From positions 1,710,001 to 1,742,000 of the forward strand of contig NZ_RSDW01000001.1 of the NCBI RefSeq assembly GCF_003945235.1: a DNA stretch of 32,000 nt. Reading direction: 5' to 3'. A model generated the notes under the pieces. It did no database searches and was not told the origin of the DNA. It was given only the letters and a program-made list of their open reading frames with translations. This stretch comes from Edaphobacter aggregans (lineage in GTDB: Bacteria > Acidobacteriota > Terriglobia > Terriglobales > Acidobacteriaceae). Position 1 is the stretch's first letter, and each line of letters starts with the position of its first letter. Below, piece after piece: positions 2,365 through 18,946 of this stretch. Made by a program: the position numbers and the translations under genes.

Positions 2365-5073
2365 ATGAACCGCTACGAAGCCGAACCGCAACAGCCGAAC
2401 CCACTCCTCCACCGCGTCGTCCGCGACGAACCCGCCTACACGACCCCGCGCGTACACATCTTCTTCAAAATTCTTCTTGTCTCTATCCCCCTCGTGCTCG
2501 TCGGCATCGTCATCGCCTTCTTCACTGCCCGCCACTGGGCCCAGCGAGCCCTGCACGACTCCCTCCCGCAGCTCGACGGCAGCATCTCCATCCCCGGCCT
2601 CTCCGCCCCCGTCACCGTCCAACGCGACACCCACGGCGTCCCCCACATCCGCGCCGCCTCGCTCGACGACCTCATCATCGCCCAGGGCTACGTCACCGCG
2701 CAGGATCGCCTCTGGCAGATGGACACCCTTCGCCGCTTCGTCTCCGGCAACATGGCCGAAGTCTTCGGCAAGAGCATGATCCCGCACGACCGCATCCAGC
2801 GAACCCTCCAGATCCAGGCCGCCGCTGACCGTGCCTATGCCGCCTTCCCGCCAGATCAGATGCGCTGGCTCGAGCTCTACGCCCGCGGCGTCAACGCCTC
2901 CATGGAGGCACAGCGCGCCCACCTCCCCCTCGAATTCCGTCTCCTCGGCTATCAACCCGCTCCCTGGACACCGCGCGACACCATCACCGTCGGCCTCGTC
3001 CTCTTCCAGGACCTCACCACCAGCTTCCCGCAAAAGCTCAACCGTGAAGCTCTCGCCGCCAAACTCTCCCCCGAACTCATCGCTGACCTCTACCCCACCG
3101 GATCCTGGCGTGACCACCCACCCACCCAGCCCACCATCGACCTAACCGCCCCCCAGGAAGAGATCCCCGACATCCCCCTCGACGAATCCCAAACCAAGCT
3201 CACAAAGCCCACTGATCCCACAAACCCGAGTGCCCAATTCATGCGGTCCCATCGCATGAGTGGGTCATTCGCGCAAAGCGCGAACCGCACTCCTTCCACC
3301 AGCCAACGACCCACCGCTACCACCCAAGACCTCCTCGCCCTCCAGCAGTCCCTAAAAGACACCCTCTGCGAAGAGTGCATCCCCGGTTCCAACAACTGGG
3401 TCGTGTCCGGAACCCACACCGCCACCGGCAAGCCGCTCCTCTCGAACGACATGCACCTCACCCACAGCGTCCCCGGCATCTGGTACCAGGCTGACCTCGA
3501 AGCACCCACCCCTACCGGTGAATTCCACGTAACCGGCGTCTCTCTTCCCGGGGTCCCCTTCATCATCGTCGGCCACAACGCCCACGTCGCCTGGGGCTTC
3601 ACCAACCTCGGAGCAGACGTACAGGACGTCTTCATCGAACACACCCGCGGCACCGGCGACACCGCCGAATACCAATCTCCCGACGGCGCCTGGCACCCCA
3701 TCCTCCATCAAAAGGAAGTCATCCACGTACGCCGCTCGCAGGACATCGTCCTCGACATCCCCACCACCCAGCACGGCAACATCATCACCCCCATCATCTC
3801 CGGCATCCTGCCCTCGGAACAGCGAGCCCTCGCCCTCCGCTGGACCATCTACGACCCAGCCAACATCTCCGCCTCACTCCTCTACATCGACTCGGCCTCT
3901 GACTGGCCCTCCTTCACCGCCGCCTTCTCCACCTTCGGAGGCCCCGCCCAAAACGTCGTCTACGCCGATGATCAAGGCCACATCGGCTACCATGCCGTAG
4001 GCAAAATCCCTCTCCGCGGCAGCCTCATCCAGCCCAGCCCCATCAGCACAGTCCCCATCGACGGCCTCGACACCACACAGGACTGGACCAGCTACATCCC
4101 CTTCGACCAGCTCCCACAATCCTTCGACCCACCCAGCGGCATCCTCGCCACCGCCAACTCCCGCGTCACCCCCGACAACTACCCCTTTCCCATTACCCCC
4201 GACTGGGGCGCCCCCTACCGCACCGAGCGCATCTGGAAGGTCCTTTCCTCGAAAGACCACCTCACCCCCGCCGACATGCTGGCCCTCCAGACCGACGTCT
4301 ACTCCGACCTCGACCATGTCATCGCCCAGCGCCTCGCCTACGCCATCGACCACTCCAGCACAAAAGACAAGCGCCTCCACCAAGCCGCCGACCTCCTCCG
4401 CAACTGGAACGGCAACGTAGACGCCGACGCCTCCGCCCCCGCTATCGTCGACGCCGCACGCGAAGCCTTCTGGCCCCTCATCCTCACGCCCAAGCTCGGT
4501 ACCGCCACCCACTACGACCCCCGCACCAGCGCTCCATCCGAACCTCTCTGGCAGCTCTACACCTGGAACGAGAAAACCTACGTCGCCGAGCAGCTCATCA
4601 TGCACACCCCCGCCCGCTGGCTCCCCTCCACCTACGCCAGCTGGGACGAGCTCCTCACCGCCGCCGTCGACCACGGCCTCCACGAAGCCCACGCCCCATC
4701 CGACCTCACCCACTGGCACTACGGCAAAGCCCACCCCATCGACATCGAACACCCCATCTACATCCTCTCGCCGATACTCCAGCGCATCGTCAGCCTTCCC
4801 ATCGGCACTGGCATCCAGCCTCAAAGCGGCGACGGAACCACCGTCAAACAAGTAGGCCGAACCTTCGGCCCCTCCGAACGCTTCACCGCCGGCCTCGCCG
4901 ACCTGGACCACTCCACCCTTAACCTGGTCCTCGGCCAATCCAGCAACCCAGCCAGCCCCTGGTTCCTCGATCAATGGCCCGCCTGGTACAAAGCCACCAC
5001 CTACCCCCTACCCTTCACCAACCCAGCCGTTGACGCCACCACCACCCACACCCTAACCCTCACACCAAACTAA
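2365..5073 (+). CDS. Penicillin acylase family protein (S45 Ntn hydrolase; possible acyl-homoserine-lactone/beta-lactam acylase), N-terminal membrane anchor
   Basis: 902-aa ORF. Alpha-subunit motif: GVPHIRAASLDDLIIAQGYVTAQDRLWQMD. Beta-subunit N-terminal nucleophile motif: GSNNWVVSG...LLSNDMHL, with the Ser codon at 3388-3390. One TM helix near the N-terminus (FFKILLVSIPLVLVGIVIAFFTA). Confidence 0.9.
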   Translation: MNRYEAEPQQPNPLLHRVVRDEPAYTTPRVHIFFKILLVSIPLVLVGIVIAFFTARHWAQRALHDSLPQLDGSISIPGLSAPVTVQRDTHGVPHIRAASLDDLIIAQGYVTAQDRLWQMDTLRRFVSGNMAEVFGKSMIPHDRIQRTLQIQAAADRAYAAFPPDQMRWLELYARGVNASMEAQRAHLPLEFRLLGYQPAPWTPRDTITVGLVLFQDLTTSFPQKLNREALAAKLSPELIADLYPTGSWRDHPPTQPTIDLTAPQEEIPDIPLDESQTKLTKPTDPTNPSAQFMRSHRMSGSFAQSANRTPSTSQRPTATTQDLLALQQSLKDTLCEECIPGSNNWVVSGTHTATGKPLLSNDMHLTHSVPGIWYQADLEAPTPTGEFHVTGVSLPGVPFIIVGHNAHVAWGFTNLGADVQDVFIEHTRGTGDTAEYQSPDGAWHPILHQKEVIHVRRSQDIVLDIPTTQHGNIITPIISGILPSEQRALALRWTIYDPANISASLLYIDSASDWPSFTAAFSTFGGPAQNVVYADDQGHIGYHAVGKIPLRGSLIQPSPISTVPIDGLDTTQDWTSYIPFDQLPQSFDPPSGILATANSRVTPDNYPFPITPDWGAPYRTERIWKVLSSKDHLTPADMLALQTDVYSDLDHVIAQRLAYAIDHSSTKDKRLHQAADLLRNWNGNVDADASAPAIVDAAREAFWPLILTPKLGTATHYDPRTSAPSEPLWQLYTWNEKTYVAEQLIMHTPARWLPSTYASWDELLTAAVDHGLHEAHAPSDLTHWHYGKAHPIDIEHPIYILSPILQRIVSLPIGTGIQPQSGDGTTVKQVGRTFGPSERFTAGLADLDHSTLNLVLGQSSNPASPWFLDQWPAWYKATTYPLPFTNPAVDATTTHTLTLTPN
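3243..3290. repeat. Intragenic palindromic repeat, short copy of the CGGGTGCCCCAT...GTGGGCATCG-hairpin-CCGC family
   Basis: Sequence: GCGGTCCCATCGCATGAGTGGGTCATTCGCGCAAAGCGCGAACCGCAC. It has a perfect 7-bp stem with a 3-nt loop, TTCGCGC-AAA-GCGCGAA, at 3268-3284. Its 3' half aligns with 6011-6040 and 16603-16629. It is read in-frame as MRSHRMSGSFAQSANRT inside the acylase. Confidence 0.7.
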
Positions 5074-5084
5074 AAATCCACCTC

Positions 5085-5185
5085 GCCGTTGCCTTGCTGT
5101 TGCAGTTCCCTTTGCTGTTGCGGTTGCCTTTGCAGTTGCCGTTGCCTCTCTTGTTGTCATCCCGTAGGGATCTGCTGTTGTCCTC
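5085..5185 (+). repeat. Degenerate (GCNGTT)n hexamer tract followed by a GTCAT-headed hairpin element
   Basis: Tract: GCCGTTGCCTTGCTGTTGCAGTT...GCGGTTGCCTTTGCAGTTGCCGTTGCC. It is followed by GTCAT (5156-5160) and the hairpin ATCCC-GTA-GGGAT (5159-5171), then CTGCTGTTG. The same architecture recurs at 8137-8216, 8326-8376 and 31176-31247. Confidence 0.75.
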
Positions 5186-5210
5186 CCTCAACCAGCCACA
5201 AAAAGATCGT

Positions 5211-5258
5211 GCGCCCACTCATCGCAGCCTCATCGCGATGAGCGGGAATGTCCGAACT
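5211..5258. repeat. Palindromic element (CCCACTCATCGC...GCGATGAGCGGG)
   Basis: CTCATCGCGATGAG at 5229-5242 is a perfect 14-nt palindrome. CCCACTCATCGC (5214-5225) pairs 11/12 with GCGATGAGCGGG (5236-5247). The ATGAGTGGG / CCCACTCAT core resembles the element at 3243-3290. Confidence 0.55.
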
Positions 5259-5339
5259 TCCCCCAGCCAGCTCCGCATTTCGTCTTCTACTCCCTATTCC
5301 CTACTACCTATTCCATATCTCTGCGATACCCTCACAGTA

Positions 5340-7097
5340 ATGCCGCGCTACCGCCTACCCTTCCTCATCATCCCGATAGCCGCGCTCATCGCCATCCTTC
5401 CCCTCATCCTCCAAGGCTGCTCCTGCGGCCACGACTTCGACTTCCACCTCCTAAACTGGTTCGAAGCCGCCCACCAGTTCACCCACGGAAACCTCCACCC
5501 AACCTGGGCCTACACCCCCGCATGGAACGCCGGCGAACCCCGCTTCATCTTCTACCCACCCATCTCCTGGATCCTCGGAGCCATCCTAGGCCTCATCCTC
5601 CCCTGGACATGGACCCCCATCGCGTACACATGGCTAGCCCTCACCGCCGCAGGCTTCGCCCTCTACTATCTCGCCAAAACCTTCGCCACTCCCAACGCCG
5701 CACTGCTAGCCGCGACCTTCTACGTAGTAAACCCCTACACCCTCTTCACCGCCTACGAGCGCACCGCCTACGCCGAGCTCCTCGCCGCCGCCTGGATCCC
5801 CCTTCTCCTCCACGCCATCCTCCGCAACAAGGTCACCATCCCCCGCATCGCCATCCCCCTCGCCCTCCTCTGGCTAACCAACGCCCCCGCCGCCGTCATG
5901 GCCAGCTACACCCTAGCCCTCCTTACCCTCATCCGCATATTTGTCTTTACAAATTCGGGTGCCCCATCGGCGCCTGCGGCAGAACCTTCGGCGCGCTTTT
6001 TGCGCCTAAGGTGGGCATCGCGCGAAAGCGCGACCGCTCCCGCCAACATCGCGCTGAAAGCCACCATCGGCACCCTACTCGGTCTGGCCCTGGCTGCCTT
6101 CTACATCGTCCCCGCCGCCTATCAACGCCGCTTCGTACAAATCAACATGGCGATCCTCCCCGGCCTCCACCCACAAGACAACTTCCTCTTCCACCACACC
6201 CTCGACGCCGACCACGACCAAGTCCTCCGCACCGCCTCCATCATCGCCGTCATTCTCATCCTCCTGACCGTCACCGCCCTTCTACTCGCGCGAATCCAAA
6301 CCAAGCCCCCATCCCGCAACACCACCTTCCTCACCTCCCTCGCCATCCTCACCCTGACCATCACCCTCCTCCTCACACCCCTGAGCGCCCCCCTCTGGCA
6401 CCATCTCCCAGAACTCCGCTTCCTCCAATTCCCTTGGCGACTCCTCGCGATCCTCGCCCCCACCCTAAGCCTCACCCTGGCCCTGGCCCTCTCGCACATC
6501 AATCTCAAATCCCTCCCGACCACCCTCCTATCCATCGCCATCGCCGCATCCCTCACCTACGCCGCCTATCACTTCTTCCACCAGCCCTGCGACCTCGAAG
6601 ACACCGTAGCCGCCCGCCTCGCCCACTTCCGCTCATCAAACCCCGCCTCCGAGCCCACCGACGAGTACACCCCCATCACCGCCGACAACGACGCCCTCGC
6701 CCCCACCAATCCCCCCTACTGGCTAGCCGACAACCCCGAAGCCCCAAGCCCCACAAACACCCCCCCCGGCCCAGCCCCCACCCACCTGGCCCTCAACCCA
6801 ACCACCCCAAAAATCCTAATCCTCAACCGCCGCGACTACCCCACCTGGAGCATCACCCGAAACGGCACCCCCATCTACACCCGCCTCAGCCGCGAAGACG
6901 GCCTCATCGCCATCCCCCTCCCCGCCAGTCCCTCCGAAATCGCCATCACCCCCATCCGCACCACCGACCAACTCCTCGGCTACCTCATCACCGCCATCGC
7001 CATCCTGGCTCTCATCCTGCTCCGCCGCGCAGACAAAATCCGAGACCGCACGTCCGCTCAAAGCTCACCACGCACCGCTGATTTATCATCACCATAG
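5340..7097 (+). CDS. Large polytopic membrane protein, GT-C-like (resembles the PTPS-related / COG5617 membrane glycosyltransferase-like family)
   Basis: I take the ATG at 5340 (MPRYRLPFLIIPIAAL...) as the start, because the longer ORF from 5094 runs through the repeat elements. The 585-aa product has more than 10 TM helices. The N-terminal motif GHDFDFHLLNWFEAAHQFTHGNLHPTWAYTPAWNAGEPRFIFYPP is recalled as typical of that family. The family assignment comes from memory only. Confidence 0.6.
   Translation: MPRYRLPFLIIPIAALIAILPLILQGCSCGHDFDFHLLNWFEAAHQFTHGNLHPTWAYTPAWNAGEPRFIFYPPISWILGAILGLILPWTWTPIAYTWLALTAAGFALYYLAKTFATPNAALLAATFYVVNPYTLFTAYERTAYAELLAAAWIPLLLHAILRNKVTIPRIAIPLALLWLTNAPAAVMASYTLALLTLIRIFVFTNSGAPSAPAAEPSARFLRLRWASRESATAPANIALKATIGTLLGLALAAFYIVPAAYQRRFVQINMAILPGLHPQDNFLFHHTLDADHDQVLRTASIIAVILILLTVTALLLARIQTKPPSRNTTFLTSLAILTLTITLLLTPLSAPLWHHLPELRFLQFPWRLLAILAPTLSLTLALALSHINLKSLPTTLLSIAIAASLTYAAYHFFHQPCDLEDTVAARLAHFRSSNPASEPTDEYTPITADNDALAPTNPPYWLADNPEAPSPTNTPPGPAPTHLALNPTTPKILILNRRDYPTWSITRNGTPIYTRLSREDGLIAIPLPASPSEIAITPIRTTDQLLGYLITAIAILALILLRRADKIRDRTSAQSSPRTADLSSP
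5956..6040. repeat. Intragenic palindromic repeat, long copy of the CGGGTGCCCCAT...GTGGGCATCG-hairpin-CCGCT family
   Basis: Sequence: CGGGTGCCCCATCGGCGCC...GGCGC-GCTTTTT-GCGCC...GGTGGGCATCGCGCGAAAGCGCGACCGCTCC. It ends in the hairpin TCGCGC-GAAA-GCGCGA at 6018-6033. It shares its 5' end with 16575-16586 and its 3' end with 16603-16629 and 3261-3290. It is translated in-frame as SGAPSAPAAEPSARFLRLRWASRESATAP. Confidence 0.75.
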
Positions 7098-8111
7098 ATG
7101 GACTCCACCGTACAAAACCTGCTCCTCTCCGGCGCGCAGCTCACCGACGCAGCCCTCGAACGCCTCCTTCCATCACCCGACACCCTCCCCCACTCCATCC
7201 ATCGAGCCATGCGCCACAGCACCTTCGCTGGCGGCAAACGCCTCCGTCCGATCCTCTGCATGGAAGCCGCCCGCATGGTCGCCGGGACCGGTGAAATCCC
7301 CGAAGGCGCAGCCAACCTCGGCGCAGCCCTCGAGATGATCCACACCTACTCCCTCATCCACGACGACCTCCCCGCCCTCGACAACGATGACCTCCGCCGC
7401 GGCCAGCCCACCTGCCACGTCGTCTTCGGCGAAGCCATCGCCATCCTCGCCGGCGACGCCCTCCAAACCCTCGCCTTCCAAACCATCGCCAATCTGCCCT
7501 GCTTCGACTACAAGACCGTCCGCATTCTCCGCGAAGTCTCCGCAGCCGTCGGTACCGGCGTAGGCCCAAACAGCCCTTTACCCCCGGGCATGATCGGTGG
7601 CCAGGTCGTCGATATCGAATCAGAAGGCCAGACTCCCACCGCCGAGCTCGTCGAATCCATTCACCGCGCCAAAACCGGAGCCCTCATCACCACCAGCATC
7701 GTCTCCGGCGGCATCTTCGGCCTGCCCCACATCTACTCGTCCATGGGCTCGGGAAGCGGCCCCGAAGCCGCGGCTCAAGCGAAGGCTTTGGTCGAAGCAT
7801 CTCGGGCCAAACATGCAGCCCACGCCGACACGATCACCCGCCTCCGCACATTCGGCGAAAAAGCCGGCCTCGCCTTCCAGATCATCGACGACGTCCTCGA
7901 CATGACCCAAAGCTCCGAAGAACTAGGCAAGACCGCCGGCAAGGACACAGCCAGCATCAAAGCCACCTGGCCCGCCGTCTACGGCATCGACCAATCCCTC
8001 AAGGACGCCGAACAACTCATTGCCGACGCCTTCGAAGCCCTAACCCCCTTCGGCGAAGCCGCCACACCCCTAAAATCCCTGGCCGCCTACCTCGTCGAAC
8101 GCAAACACTAA
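7098..8111 (+). CDS. Polyprenyl diphosphate synthase family (FPP/GGPP synthase, IspA-like)
   Basis: 337-aa ORF. First Asp-rich motif: LIHDDLPALDNDDLRRG. Second Asp-rich motif: FQIIDDVLD. Also KTGAL. The ATG at 7098 directly abuts the TAG (7095-7097) of the upstream membrane protein gene. Confidence 0.9.
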   Translation: MDSTVQNLLLSGAQLTDAALERLLPSPDTLPHSIHRAMRHSTFAGGKRLRPILCMEAARMVAGTGEIPEGAANLGAALEMIHTYSLIHDDLPALDNDDLRRGQPTCHVVFGEAIAILAGDALQTLAFQTIANLPCFDYKTVRILREVSAAVGTGVGPNSPLPPGMIGGQVVDIESEGQTPTAELVESIHRAKTGALITTSIVSGGIFGLPHIYSSMGSGSGPEAAAQAKALVEASRAKHAAHADTITRLRTFGEKAGLAFQIIDDVLDMTQSSEELGKTAGKDTASIKATWPAVYGIDQSLKDAEQLIADAFEALTPFGEAATPLKSLAAYLVERKH

Positions 8112-8136
8112 CTGATTCACCCGCACTATTGCACCT

Positions 8137-8216
8137 GCCGTTGTTTTTGCTATTGCCTTTCTTGCCCGTCATCCCCGAAGAGCCTGCCCTGAGCGAAGCC
8201 GAAGGGGATCTGCTGT
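8137..8216 (+). repeat. T-rich GNNGTT-like tract plus GTCAT hairpin element (expanded-loop variant)
   Basis: Sequence: GCCGTTGTTTTTGCTATTGCCTTTCTTGCCC-GTCAT(8168-8172)CCCCGAAG[AGCCTGCCCTGAGCGAAGCC]GAAGGGGATCTGCTGTG. Apart from the bracketed insert, it matches the 8344-8370 copy. Confidence 0.75.
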
Positions 8217-8237
8217 GCTTCCCATCGCAACTCAACT

Positions 8238-12314: not shown

Positions 12315-12372
12315 GTCGTTGCCGTTGCCCATTGCAGTTGCAGTTGCAGTTGCAGTTGCAGTTGCAGTTGCT
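12315..12372 (+). repeat. Hexanucleotide microsatellite: six perfect GCAGTT units (12334-12369) flanked by degenerate GYCGTT units
   Basis: Read directly: GTCGTTGCCGTTGCCCATT then GCAGTT x6 then GCTT. It lies in the convergent intergenic region between the methyltransferase gene and tsaE. Confidence 0.95.
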
Positions 12373-12373
12373 T

Positions 12374-12410
12374 GTCATTCTGAGCGCAGCGAAGAACCCC
12401 CGCATTTTGC
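12374..12410 (+). repeat. GTCATTCTGAGCGCAGCGAAGAACCCCCGCATTTTGC element
   Basis: It has a GTCAT head directly after the hexamer tract, the same architecture as at 5085-5185. It shares its 3' 15-mer with 8459-8473. Confidence 0.75.
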
Positions 12411-15888: not shown

Positions 15889-17553
15889 TTAATTACTGGT
15901 CCCCCGCAACCCACAAATCCAATCCGCCCCACTCTCATCTCTTACCCGATATCGAAACGCATCTGACAAATGTGTAACCGTATCGGTTGCAAGTACCGTA
16001 TGCTCATCCATCGCATGAGCCGCAAAGTCCCCCGCCAGCCCATGCAGATAAACCGCAGCCTCCACAGCCCGCTTCACATCGTCAGGAAACTGAGCCAGCA
16101 TCCCCGCCACAATCCCCGTCAAAATATCCCCACTCCCACCCTTAGCCATCGAAGGATTCCCCGTAGTATTCACCGCAATCGACCCATCCGGATGCGCCAC
16201 CAGCGTCCTCCATCCCTTCAACACCAGCGTCAGCTTATGCTCCGTAGCAAACCGCCGAGCCAATCCCACCCGATCCGCCTCAACCTCTTTCACCGTCATC
16301 CCAACCAACCGAGCCATCTCCCCCGGATGCGGCGTCAGCACCATCACCCTACCCGACCCATCCAGCAAATCCGCCTTCCGCTCAAAAGCATTCAACGCAT
16401 CCGCATCAATCACCATCGGAACCGTAGTCTTAGCCACCAGCCGTCGAGCAAACTCCGAAGCATCCCCCACCGTCCCCAACCCCGGCCCCACCGCCACCAC
16501 GTTAATCCCCTTCATCAACCCCTCAAACCGCTCCCCCTCTAAATTCCCAAGCGAAACCCCATCAGCAACGAAACCGGGTGCCCCATATCTCGATTCTGAG
16601 ATGTGGGCATCGTCCGAAGGACGACCGCTTTCCTCCAAAGGAGCCACCATCAACTCCGGAGCCACCCCCGCAACAATCCCCACCACCCGCTCCGGAACCG
16701 CCGCAGTCACCAACCCCGCCCCCGTCCTCAACGCCGCCAGCGAAGCCATCGCCGGAGCCCCAGCCTTTCCCCAACTCCCCCCCACCACCAGAACATGCCC
16801 AAACTTGCCTTTATTGGAATTCACTCCACGCGCCTTCTCCGCCACCACCTTCGAAGCTCCCGTCCACGTCAACGCCGAAGTAGAAACCACCGCCCCATCA
16901 GGAGACCCAATCCCCGCCACCACCACCGGCCCAAACGTCCCACGCGTCAGATGCCCAAACACATGAGCCATCTTCGGAGCGGTAAACGTCACAACCGCAT
17001 CCGCCCGATACGCCCCCTCCACCGTCTGCTCCATCGAGTCCGAGTCCCACCCCGAAGGCACATCGACCGCAACCACCGGCACACTTAACCCCTCGACCAT
17101 CTGCCGCAGCCCAGCCGCCAGCCCGCGTAGCGGAGGCTTGAACCCAGTCCCCACCACAGCATCCACCAATAACTCCGCATCCCCCAGAACATCGCTGCAA
17201 GCCTTAAGCCCAACCTCATCCACCACTTCGCGCATTGCCACCCCCGGAGCCTCATCACGAAGTCGCCTTAAAGCCGCCGCAGCCTCACCCTTCACCTCAC
17301 CCATCCGCCCGAGCAGCACCACCCGCACCGTCCAGCCCGCCCCCGCCAGCACCCGAGCCGCAACAAACCCGTCTCCCCCATTGTTCCCCTTCCCACAAAG
17401 CACCGTCACCCGCTCCGACGCCCAATACTGCCGTAAGCAGAACCCAACCACCGCCCCACCAGCCGCCTCCATCAAATCCCCCAGCGGAACCCCAAACTCT
17501 TCAACCGTCCGCCGATCCGCCGCCCCCATCTCCGCTGCCGTCAGAATCTTCAT
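15889..17553 (-). CDS. nnr: Bifunctional NAD(P)H-hydrate repair enzyme Nnr (epimerase / ADP-dependent dehydratase)
   Basis: 554-aa ORF. YjeF_N motifs: MKILTAAEM...CGKGNNGGDGFVAAR. C-terminal carbohydrate-kinase motifs: KGKFGHVLVVGGS, VGPGLG, GGSGDILTGIVAG. Confidence 0.9.
   Translation of the reverse strand: MKILTAAEMGAADRRTVEEFGVPLGDLMEAAGGAVVGFCLRQYWASERVTVLCGKGNNGGDGFVAARVLAGAGWTVRVVLLGRMGEVKGEAAAALRRLRDEAPGVAMREVVDEVGLKACSDVLGDAELLVDAVVGTGFKPPLRGLAAGLRQMVEGLSVPVVAVDVPSGWDSDSMEQTVEGAYRADAVVTFTAPKMAHVFGHLTRGTFGPVVVAGIGSPDGAVVSTSALTWTGASKVVAEKARGVNSNKGKFGHVLVVGGSWGKAGAPAMASLAALRTGAGLVTAAVPERVVGIVAGVAPELMVAPLEESGRPSDDAHISESRYGAPGFVADGVSLGNLEGERFEGLMKGINVVAVGPGLGTVGDASEFARRLVAKTTVPMVIDADALNAFERKADLLDGSGRVMVLTPHPGEMARLVGMTVKEVEADRVGLARRFATEHKLTLVLKGWRTLVAHPDGSIAVNTTGNPSMAKGGSGDILTGIVAGMLAQFPDDVKRAVEAAVYLHGLAGDFAAHAMDEHTVLATDTVTHLSDAFRYRVRDESGADWICGLRGTSN
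16574..16629. repeat. Intragenic palindromic repeat of the CGGGTGCCCCAT...GTGGGCATCG-hairpin-CCGCT family, inside nnr (minus-strand gene)
   Basis: Plus-strand sequence: CCGGGTGCCCCATATCTCGATTCTGAGATGTGGGCATCGTCCGAAGGACGACCGCT. It has an imperfect hairpin GCCCCATATCTC / GAGATGTGGGC and a perfect hairpin TCGTCC-GAA-GGACGA at 16610-16624. It is translated on the minus strand as GRPSDDAHISESRYGAPGF. Confidence 0.75.
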
Positions 17554-17695: not shown

Positions 17696-18946
17696 CTACT
17701 CCGACGCCCCCACATCCCCAGCCTCAGCCACCGGCTGAACCTTAGGAATAAAGTAGCTCTTATCCCATAGCGCCTTATAGAAAGTCCCTGTTAATTCAGC
17801 AGCTTTCGGCCCAAACGTAGGTCGTCCACCCTCCAGAAAAAACACCGTAACAATCCGCCCGCTAGGCGTATCCGCATACGACCCAAACCACCCAAATCGA
17901 GTCCCATTATTCGAACAAGTCCCCGTCTTCCCCATCACCGGAAACTGGTTGAAATTAGCCCTTAAAGACCGCGCCGTGCCATACAAAACCGCACCTTGCA
18001 TCCCATCTTCAATCTCAGGAATCAGTGGAGCAATATTTAAAGTCCGCTTCACTTTAGGCTCAAACATCGCAACATCCATCTGCGTCTCCGGATGCTGCAG
18101 ATAATAAAGCGTTCCCCCATTCGCAATCGCCGCGACCAGCGCCCCAAGCTGTAGCGGAGTCATCGAAACGCTCTCGCCAAACGAGCACATCCGACCCACG
18201 CCACCCAGCGATGCCGGCAGTTCCTCATCCGGATAGATCCCCAACTGCTCACCTTGAATGTGGTAGCCGGCCAGTTCCCCCAAGCCAAATTGGTTCGCGT
18301 AATGTTTCACGCGCTCAAAGCCCAACGACCGCCCAAGTGTCTCAAAATAAGCATTATTAGAGTGCGCCAGCGCCTCGGTCATGGTCAGGTGATACTTCCC
18401 TCCCAGATTCACCGGCGTGTCCTTCCGCACAATCCCCTCTTCAAGCGCAGCCAGCGCCACCGTCAGCTTGATCGTCGAACAAGGCTCAGCCCCTCGTGAC
18501 AAAGCCAGCTTCTGGTTCACCATCGCCAGAATCCGCCCATTATCGGGATTGATCGCCACCGCCGTCCCGTTCATGTTGCCCAGCGCCTCAATGGCCGCAG
18601 CGCGAACCACCGGATCTTCTCCCTCAGTCACATCGCCGAGCGTCAGATTATCGGCAAATGAGCTAGCAGAAAAATGTTCGTAGGACTTAGTCCGCCGCAC
18701 TGCAAGCTTCGTCTTCGCACCACGCCCACGTCCATGCGATACAACAGTCTTTGAGGTCGCCACAGCGTGCGTACTCGCGTGGGCAGTCGCTTTACCAGCA
18801 TGCGCGGTCGTCGTCTTCGCCTTAGTCGAAGTATGCGTCGTTTTCGCTGCGTGCTTCTTCGTTGTGGCGGTTGTCGTCGCACGCGCCCCCGCGCACAGTG
18901 CCAGGCTGCACAAAATCACGCCCAACATTCGCGCGTATCGCGGCAT
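17696..18946 (-). CDS. Penicillin-binding transpeptidase-domain protein (transpeptidase only, secreted or anchored)
   Basis: All three motifs are present: SxxK (CSTIKL), SxN (HSNNAY) and KTG (GKTGTC). The preferred start is the ATG at 18946 (MPRYARMLGVILCSLALCAGARA, a signal peptide). Alternatives are 18928 and the ORF-track start at 19057. A T/A/K/H-rich low-complexity linker follows the signal peptide. Confidence 0.8.
   Translation of the reverse strand: MPRYARMLGVILCSLALCAGARATTTATTKKHAAKTTHTSTKAKTTTAHAGKATAHASTHAVATSKTVVSHGRGRGAKTKLAVRRTKSYEHFSASSFADNLTLGDVTEGEDPVVRAAAIEALGNMNGTAVAINPDNGRILAMVNQKLALSRGAEPCSTIKLTVALAALEEGIVRKDTPVNLGGKYHLTMTEALAHSNNAYFETLGRSLGFERVKHYANQFGLGELAGYHIQGEQLGIYPDEELPASLGGVGRMCSFGESVSMTPLQLGALVAAIANGGTLYYLQHPETQMDVAMFEPKVKRTLNIAPLIPEIEDGMQGAVLYGTARSLRANFNQFPVMGKTGTCSNNGTRFGWFGSYADTPSGRIVTVFFLEGGRPTFGPKAAELTGTFYKALWDKSYFIPKVQPVAEAGDVGASE

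Follow-up and report, generated by a model that had tools for sequence, protein, structure and literature searches.

Within a 32,000-nucleotide stretch of the Edaphobacter aggregans genome (contig NZ_RSDW01000001.1, positions 1,710,001 to 1,742,000; hereafter the window), the gene nnr carries an in-frame copy of a 73-base repeat with two hairpins, which is translated from the minus strand. Having followed this repeat through other genomes, we consider it likely that it belongs to an Acidobacteriaceae-specific family of the repetitive extragenic palindromic (REP) type, associated with REP-associated tyrosine transposases (RAYTs), and that the nnr copy is a translated passenger in a permissive, disordered loop. 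A previous reading of the window (the original prediction) had called the repeat an intragenic palindromic repeat. The label suits the nnr copy and the other coding copies but not the family at large, since most of its members are intergenic (100 of 144 listed). In its broader interpretation the original prediction is supported, and the step that we infer is mobilisation by a RAYT.

Read on the plus strand, the unit comprises a 5′ foot, GGGTGCCCCAT (box 1), an apical hairpin, GTGGGCATCG (box 2), a GC mini-hairpin (the second hairpin) and CGACCGC (box 3); the coordinates of its parts in nnr are given in Table 1. The long stem is imperfect, with GGGTGCCCCAT pairing to GTGGGCAT. In the minimum-free-energy fold of the plus strand of the nnr copy, both hairpins formed inside a short CGG/CCG stem at −29.6 kcal/mol (z = −4.35; 0 of 200 shuffles equalled it), in agreement with the earlier view that this copy keeps two hairpins, and the minus strand folded more weakly (z = −3.09). 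The plus-strand sequence quoted earlier for 16574-16629 reads exactly so in the window and covers the core, but the element is slightly larger, extending over about 16564-16636 with the 5′ foot and a 3′ tail. A covariance model trained solely on copies from other genomes was run on the window, and since it gave the nnr copy 93.2 bits with an E-value of 1e-28, the match is not due to chance. No Rfam 15 covariance model matched anywhere in the window at E-values up to 1, and an ARAGORN tRNA scan of the window returned nothing.

The structure is supported across the family by compensatory changes. In an ungapped alignment of 21 copies, the variable part of the long stem and the second hairpin were 100% paired, and 31 cells showed changes on both sides of a pair, compared with 11.2 in shuffles (0 of 500 shuffles reached 31). 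An alignment of 137 copies gave 96.9% of cells paired and both-side changes in 16 of 22 pairs (0 of 500 shuffles reached this), with a covariation score of 0.271 against at most 0.066 in slid controls; this alignment was fitted to the model and hence favours the structure. The compensatory stem changes that had been seen between two copies thus extend over many. Apical variants included ACATC/GATGT, GTCTC/GAGAC, GTCCC/GGGAC and TCGTC/GACGA. Of 139 distinct copies, 104 had a second hairpin whose stem was perfect over 4 bp or more, and the sequences of its arms were diverse; its inner pairs took the forms TCC/GGA, TGC/GCA, CGC/GCG, AGC/GCU, GGC/GCC and CCC/GGG, and GAA was its commonest loop (24 cases). 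GAA hairpins of the GCGAAGC type are unusually stable in single-stranded DNA, which is suggestive only. The closing 3-bp stem was 92% paired in the 137 copies, with weak covariation. On the defined strand, G·T (G·U) wobbles outnumbered A·C mismatches by 103 to 54. An outer GAAA/UUUC helix of four pairs, present in the single-sequence fold, was rejected, being mostly unpaired in other copies and without covariation support.

We scanned representative genomes for exact GGGTGCCCCAT, a gap of 14-44 nt and exact GTGGGCATCG, which yielded at least 139 pattern matches in at least 120 stretches (stretches of other genomes are denoted by L numbers below, and homologous proteins by P numbers), nearly all from Acidobacteriaceae (Granulicella, Edaphobacter, Tunturiibacter and Acidobacterium). 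Besides the boxes, these matches have in common CGACCGC, a second hairpin patterned as TCG-NNN-loop-NNN-CGA and, more weakly conserved, the foot CcacaAAxCC. Among the matches listed, to which the family-wide counts in this and the next paragraph apply, 141 copies remained after filtering and were assigned to 62 assemblies. Long-spacer matches in L030, L033 and L046 (non-Acidobacteriota) and in L095, a metagenome-assembled genome (MAG) of Thermoanaerobaculia, lacked hairpins and were taken as chance; about 8 random matches are expected for the pattern, and four hairpin-less ones are roughly in line with this. Typical copies also occurred on contigs of MAGs labelled Rhodanobacteraceae (L041, L075, L083 and L098) and Verrucomicrobiae (L048), which may reflect mis-binning or mislabelling rather than true presence. 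The apical hairpins fell into discrete types (ATCTCGATTCTGAGAT; CTTCGCGACGGCTTCATCGTCGCTAAG; TCATGCAGTCTCATCGCATGA; TCTGATCGC...GCGATCAGG; CTTCGGCGCGCTTTTTGCGCCTAAG), and the hairpin class was shared by 61% of same-genome pairs compared with 17% of between-genome pairs. Hairpin types are therefore largely genome-specific. Copies were clustered in tandem in six stretches (L069, L110, L091, L056, L021 and L003), and up to 13 copies per genome were observed within the sampled 8-kb blocks. The element is also present in the complete chromosomes of Tunturiibacter empetritectus (CP132929) and of Edaphobacter (OZ255826 and OZ255715).

The intergenic placement of the repeat is REP-like. With gene context taken from our simple codon-usage gene caller, 100 of the 144 copies (69%) were intergenic, 16 overlapped a gene end and 28 lay inside open reading frames (ORFs). 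Between tandem genes, 35 copies were co-oriented with the genes and 13 anti-oriented; 28 copies lay between convergent genes and 5 between divergent ones, against a background of 88 and 108. Overall, 78% of classifiable intergenic copies were co-oriented with the upstream gene, and the co-oriented tandem copies lay a median of 31 nt past its stop codon. About 85% of a bacterial genome is coding, and with most copies intergenic, coding copies are strongly depleted but real. At least 14 copies deep inside genes were confirmed by Pfam or orthology, 8 in sense and 6 in antisense orientation, in addition to three in the window; the expectation that the element is tolerated in coding sequence in both orientations was thus borne out. 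In-frame copies in verified genes make up about 10-15% of the listed copies. The hosts include a class-V aminotransferase, AnmK (two genomes), ATP-dependent DNA ligase (two sites), penicillin amidase, GH20, GH28, a PTPS-related membrane protein and a RAYT itself. Hand translation of the consensus with the 16-nt hairpin left 5 of 6 frames open, and at least four frames are in use among coding copies (PGAPYLDSEMWAS..., RVPHISILRCGH..., DAHISESRYGAPG... and MPTSQSRDMGHP...). No target-site duplication of 3-8 bp exceeded that of shuffled partners at any of 16 × 16 boundary offsets, which fits an HUH/Y1 mechanism and argues against a miniature inverted-repeat transposable element (MITE) of the DDE type.

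We then considered the host protein. As had been proposed, nnr lies on the minus strand and reads through the element in frame, encoding 554 residues with the Pfam domains YjeF_N (residues 26-195) and Carb_kinase (residues 254-524). The reverse complement of the copy is translated as ...PLEESGRPSDDAHISESRYGAPGFVADGVSL... (core ...EESGRPSDDAHISESRYGAPGFVADG...), adding about 21 residues read antisense to the structural strand; the 5′ foot provides, on its opposite strand, the codons for the loop residues FVA. Of the 120 closest homologues, some 85 show a short loop (type PLAEGxKG-AVSF) and about 37 bear the longer one, and in one clade, which includes the window protein, 5-39 extra residues occur precisely at this point; Thermotoga maritima Nnr (PDB 2AX3) aligned without the insert. 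The insertion thus appears to be lineage-specific, as anticipated for an indel in a variable loop, and confined to one Edaphobacter-like clade among the homologues compared. An AlphaFold2 model gave predicted local distance difference test (pLDDT) values below 50 at residues 311-330 and of 83-91 in the flanks, so that the insert is predicted to be a disordered surface loop of the dehydratase domain.

Orthologues of nnr share a nucleotide framework around a changing apex. The framework reads CCGGGTGC CCCAT-(hairpin)-GTGGGC ATCG-(mini-hairpin)-CGACCGC. The apical hairpin is ATCTC...GAGAT in the window and in L006, ACATC...GATGT in L001 (a double compensatory change), an unrelated hairpin of 25 nt in L003, and long and nested in L002. 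The L004 gene (10001-11629) has cleanly lost its apical hairpin together with the inner portions of both boxes, so that CCGGGTGC adjoins ATCG, with the second hairpin and the reading frame intact; this loss could have arisen by excision or by slippage over the stem during replication. The site is empty in L005 (Edaphobacter sp. DSM 109919). Comparing the window with L001 and L003, we found 29 of 30 and 30 of 30 framework bases identical, whereas fourfold-type synonymous sites outside the element were 64% and 72% identical, respectively. The insertion, common to species with this level of synonymous-site identity, is old rather than recent. The framework identity above the synonymous-site level indicates that selection or homogenisation preserves the framework even as the apex turns over; for the conserved framework and the replaced hairpins at orthologous coding sites alike, the candidate causes are selection acting on the structure of DNA or RNA, conversion by the dominant subfamily of the genome, and enzyme-mediated exchange. 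At the protein level, the peptide between the boxes varies with hairpin type (ISESRY, TSESMY, LSAMKPRED and PPFAKDAKD), and three Nnr homologues (P0005, P0006 and P0008) lack the apical part. The residues that recur in Nnr inserts, GAPG and SxDAH, are exactly those encoded by box 1 and box 2.

The original prediction had also suggested a mobilising transposase of the Y1/REP-associated class. A motif screen of all ORFs in the element loci identified three Y1_Tnp genes. Two of them (L105 and L042) are each flanked by two direct copies, which at L105 carry the same hairpin type; the L042 RAYT gene itself contains an inverted in-frame copy (629-670), read as ...APMPTSRKNSETWGTP..., and the third gene (L017) is flanked by a different repeat. 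Homologues of the L105 protein were taken from independent contigs, chosen irrespective of the element, and four of their genes (P0129, P0142, P0159 and P0223) were likewise flanked on either side. Among eight Y1 loci examined, six RAYT lineages (L105, L042, L127-129, L130-131, L132 and L135) had the element both before and after the gene, no more than about 100 nt away. A Terracidiphilus RAYT homologue had a variant hairpin (GGGTGGCCCAG...) on the upstream side only. The RAYT genes are single-copy-like and in conserved synteny, after ffh or beside an AIPR gene. Five RAYT proteins tested against the NCBIfam model NF047646 ("REP-associated tyrosine transposase") scored 94-110 bits (cutoff 80), and with the IS200/IS605 model NF033573 they scored 28-36 bits, under its cutoff of 55; between the L105 protein and tsa392 of T. 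saanensis, a member of the TIRYT group, identity is 55%. Thus, the suggestion of a Y1/REP-associated enzyme holds for related genomes but not for the window, in which no RAYT gene was found. Two further observations were made at these loci. At L130, the called ORF of 222 aa includes an inverted copy (about 1640-1680), but the conserved MPLGL... start comes only after it, so that the copy is probably part of the 5′ leader and not of the RAYT. At L132, element doublets enclose a short fragment resembling a truncated RAYT 5′ end (ATGCCGCACGGGTCAAGCGGTATCAGG..., 1209-1285), and the intact RAYT gene follows downstream.

We propose that copies are probably made and moved as single-stranded DNA hairpins by the single-copy RAYT of the lineage. 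Most copies persist just 3′ of genes in the transcribed orientation. A minority would enter genes, where they would survive only if their length keeps the frame, the frame used is free of stops, and a loop or linker accommodates the resulting residues, which are rich in Gly, Pro and Ser. As such a passenger, the nnr copy would have entered an ancestor of the Edaphobacter-like clade, after which the nucleotide framework would have been kept and the apical hairpin repeatedly replaced or deleted.

Several points weigh against this proposal. The three window copies occupy sites shared with other genera, which indicates persistence, not recent mobility. The 32-kb window is devoid of a RAYT gene. 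Mobilisation by such an enzyme is argued by analogy. The copies flanking RAYT genes are direct, not inverted, at L105, L042, L127 and L130, and at L135 they are reversed relative to the gene (and also occur in arrays). The element carries neither the GTAG nor the CGTC tag of the classical REP superfamilies, its 5′ side being CC-GGGTGCCCCAT with a box of 11 nt. Sharing of boxes 1 and 2 among copies is partly ascertainment, as exact boxes were required by the scan, and gene context depends on a simple caller. Finally, framework conservation and the sense-strand bias could reflect a role at the RNA level.

Such a role leads to a different explanation, in which the family is mainly a functional RNA, a stem-loop of the 3′ untranslated region that ends or stabilises transcripts, with the coding copies as by-products and the RAYT link secondary. 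We regard this as unlikely. In its favour are co-orientation with the upstream gene at a short distance past its stop codon, avoidance of divergent promoter regions, the excess of G·U wobbles over A·C mismatches, better folding of the plus strand, and conservation of the framework above the synonymous-site expectation. Against it, no Rfam model matched in the window, no U-tract follows the hairpins, intragenic copies occur in both orientations with the nnr copy antisense to the structural strand, copies behave like mobile or amplifying DNA in forming tandem arrays and subfamilies particular to a genome, and they flank RAYT genes. An RNA role is compatible with a REP-type, RAYT-associated family as a secondary role, and one of this kind has been proposed for E. 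coli REPs.

A rather improbable possibility is that the boxes are recognition or cleavage sites of the RAYT and the apex an exchangeable cassette, so that the enzyme, or template switching guided by the boxes, excises and replaces the hairpin in place time and again. If so, a fixed protein loop, including loops in housekeeping genes, would be rewritten with the dominant hairpin type of the genome, and this would amount to site-specific, transposase-linked editing of coding loops, beyond the decay of an old insertion.

It is very improbable that the repeat is a conventional MITE, a deletion derivative of a DDE-transposase insertion sequence moved by cut-and-paste via terminal inverted repeats (TIRs) with target-site duplications. 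Boxes 1 and 2 are indeed imperfect inverted repeats, and the copies are small, dispersed and in part intragenic, but besides the lack of target-site duplications, no full-length insertion sequence with the ends GGGTGCCCCAT...ATGGGGCACCC was found in about 1 Mb of flanking DNA, the sole transposase genes bracketed by the element are of the Y1/RAYT type, and the inverted repeat includes neither the second hairpin nor box 3. Equally hard to credit is a functional, selected Nnr loop that resembles other loci through convergent peptide motifs: the insert is kept in frame across the clade and GAPG and SxDAH recur, but these residues are box-encoded, the intervening peptide changes wholesale with hairpin type or is missing along with the apical part, most orthologues and the T. 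maritima enzyme have no such loop, this DNA is also found between genes and, read in other frames, within unrelated ones, and the loop is predicted to be disordered.

The repeat has other occurrences in the window (Table 1). The copy at 5956-6041, to which the nnr copy had originally been likened as the same element on the same strand, shares the blocks CGGGTGCCCCAT, GTGGGCATCG and CGACCGCT with it in the same order on the plus strand, confirming the likeness; its apical region is longer and nested. At the orthologous membrane-protein site, L005 is empty, L001 has a variant, and L054, L058 and L106 have copies with other hairpins. A simple repeat search of the window found only two close copies, and the diverged copy at 3216-3296 required the covariance model; the label "copy 3" given earlier to the nnr copy follows from there being this third copy in the window. 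It lies in a variable stretch about 50 residues ahead of the conserved GSNNW motif of a penicillin amidase, and the penicillin amidase of L061 has an orthologous insert. We take this position to be the alpha/beta spacer, a segment preceding the N-terminal nucleophile that related acylases lose as they mature, and if so it would be a permissive site. A possible decayed intergenic copy at 5196-5262 was not reported by the covariance model run on the window.

Table 1 Features of the repeat, its host gene and further copies in the window (positions are those of the window).
Feature	Position	Strand	Basis or remark
nnr, bifunctional NAD(P)H-hydrate epimerase/dehydratase	15889..17553	−	Pfam PF03853 + PF01256; insert at about residues 308-332
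Full repeat copy in nnr	16564..16636	+	Covariance model R1, 93.2 bits, E 1.4e-28, model positions 1-73
5′ foot CAACGAAACC	16566..16575	+	Fits weak family consensus CcacaAAxCC (profile, 130 copies)
Box 1 GGGTGCCCCAT	16576..16586	+	5′ arm of long stem; pairs with box 2; near-invariant family-wide
Apical variable hairpin, 16-nt type ATCTC-GATTCT-GAGAT	16587..16602	+	Fold; compensatory variants in other copies
Box 2 GTGGGCATCG	16603..16612	+	3′ arm of long stem; final three bases open second hairpin
Second hairpin TCGTCC-GAA-GGACGA	16610..16624	+	Perfect hairpin here in 104/139 distinct copies; inner pairs covary
Box 3 CGACCGC	16622..16628	+	Position profile; its CCG pairs with the CGG starting box 1 (3-bp closing stem)
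Second copy	5956..6041	+	Covariance model, 33.8 bits; sense, in frame, PTPS-related/YfhO-like membrane protein gene 5343..7097
Third, diverged copy	3216..3296	+	Covariance model, 29.5 bits, E 7.8e-8; sense, in frame, penicillin-amidase gene 2365..5073
Possible decayed intergenic copy CCACAAAAAGATC GTGCGCCCAC TCATCGCAGCCTCATCGCGATGA GCGGGAATG	5196..5262	+	By eye only; resembles 23-nt hairpin type of Tunturiibacter L069

Further sequences of note occur in the window. In the polyprenyl synthetase gene at 7098..8111, positions 7716-7800 encode a lineage-specific loop insert of about 35 aa. Its DNA contains a GCGGCCCCGAAGCCGC hairpin and, resembling box 1, CTGCCCCACATC; the stretch looks like a decayed copy and has no covariance-model support. 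The same loop holds a truncated true copy in L001 (about 18230-18300), where the called gene is split into two ORFs, and neither insert nor element copy in L005. Intergenic arrays of the hexamer (GTTGCN)n were present at 5082-5185, 8129-8225 and 12320-12400 of the window and at 420-690 and 1150-1300 of L017, each followed by a module like GTCATYC...GAGCG.AGCGAAG...ATCTGC. In L017, these arrays, together with a unit of about 85 nt (TTCTAGGTACGCCAAGCC..GGCTTGGCC..GGGGCTTTAGCCCCTGGGGTATGC), flank the different Y1_Tnp gene on both sides, and they probably constitute another repeat system of the REPtron type within this bacterial family.

We class the repeat as a new REP/RAYT-type family with coding insertions like those of the Rickettsia palindromic elements (RPEs); the phenomenon itself is already known, and this is not a new kind of system. 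We found no description of the family in the open-access literature searched. Coding palindromic insertions are, to our knowledge, best known from Rickettsia, where we know of no mobilising enzyme. Here, the same outcome is seen in free-living soil bacteria with a RAYT bracketed by the repeat, which makes its origin experimentally approachable. In nnr, AnmK, DNA ligase, penicillin amidase and the membrane protein, orthologous sites can be matched between genomes, which would allow hairpin replacement, excision and framework conservation to be dated and counted. In annotations of Acidobacteriaceae, the repeat also gives rise to numerous small ORFs that are spurious and to unusual loop peptides (GAPG..., MGHP...), and it can mislead alignments.

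One close likeness is to the REP, REPIN and REPtron systems of Proteobacteria. Both are short imperfect palindromes, and in the stretches sampled the present copies resemble REPs in being dispersed, mostly just 3′ of genes and some clustered; in both cases subfamilies are genome-specific, a single-copy RAYT in conserved synteny is flanked, and no target duplication is seen. Apart from the absent tags, the present element differs in that its unit has two hairpins and a closing 3-bp stem, near-invariant boxes of 11 and 10 nt and a modular apex, its RAYT-flanking copies are direct at most loci, and about 10-15% of the listed copies are in-frame coding.

RPEs (Ogata et al. 2000; also cited in PMC3733652) reportedly occur in frame in many unrelated genes and are translated as extra surface peptides with function kept, and we liken the present repeat to them by analogy, as a palindromic repeat in frame in many unrelated ORFs. 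The two are probably unrelated in sequence, and taxon and length differ, RPE-1 being longer (about 100-150 nt). We know of no transposase linked to RPEs, whereas a RAYT is adjacent to the present element, whose hosts are free-living soil bacteria with large genomes. With IS200/IS605 elements, for which targeting of the lagging strand has been described, and with their palindrome-associated derivatives, the system shares a Y1 HUH enzyme, one-strand hairpins at both gene ends in direct arrangement and the absence of target duplication. It differs in an enzyme that scores as a RAYT and below the IS200 cutoff, and that is single-copy in conserved synteny, not a multicopy insertion sequence; no conserved target tetranucleotide was identified.

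The RAYTs found here belong to the TIRtron/TIRYT group of Acidobacteria (Di Nocera, De Gregorio and Rocco 2013, PMC3733652). Repeats flanking acidobacterial TIRYT genes are noted in that paper, and its text attributes a repeat family among Acidobacteria only to the TIRs of K. versatilis ORF1552. Its supplementary text contains neither GGGTGCCCC nor GGGGCACCC, a statement that does not extend to the TIR sequences of its Figure 9; the GGGGWSAS motif given in the paper does not fit box 1, and intragenic copies in Acidobacteria are not reported there. The same source describes intragenic GTAG/CGTC REPs in Opitutus terrae, R. conorii, Pseudomonas and others, with units or dimers coding for about 7-30 residues in known genes. 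Those repeats belong to another superfamily, whereas the insertions described here lie at orthologous sites across genera, where the hairpin turns over.

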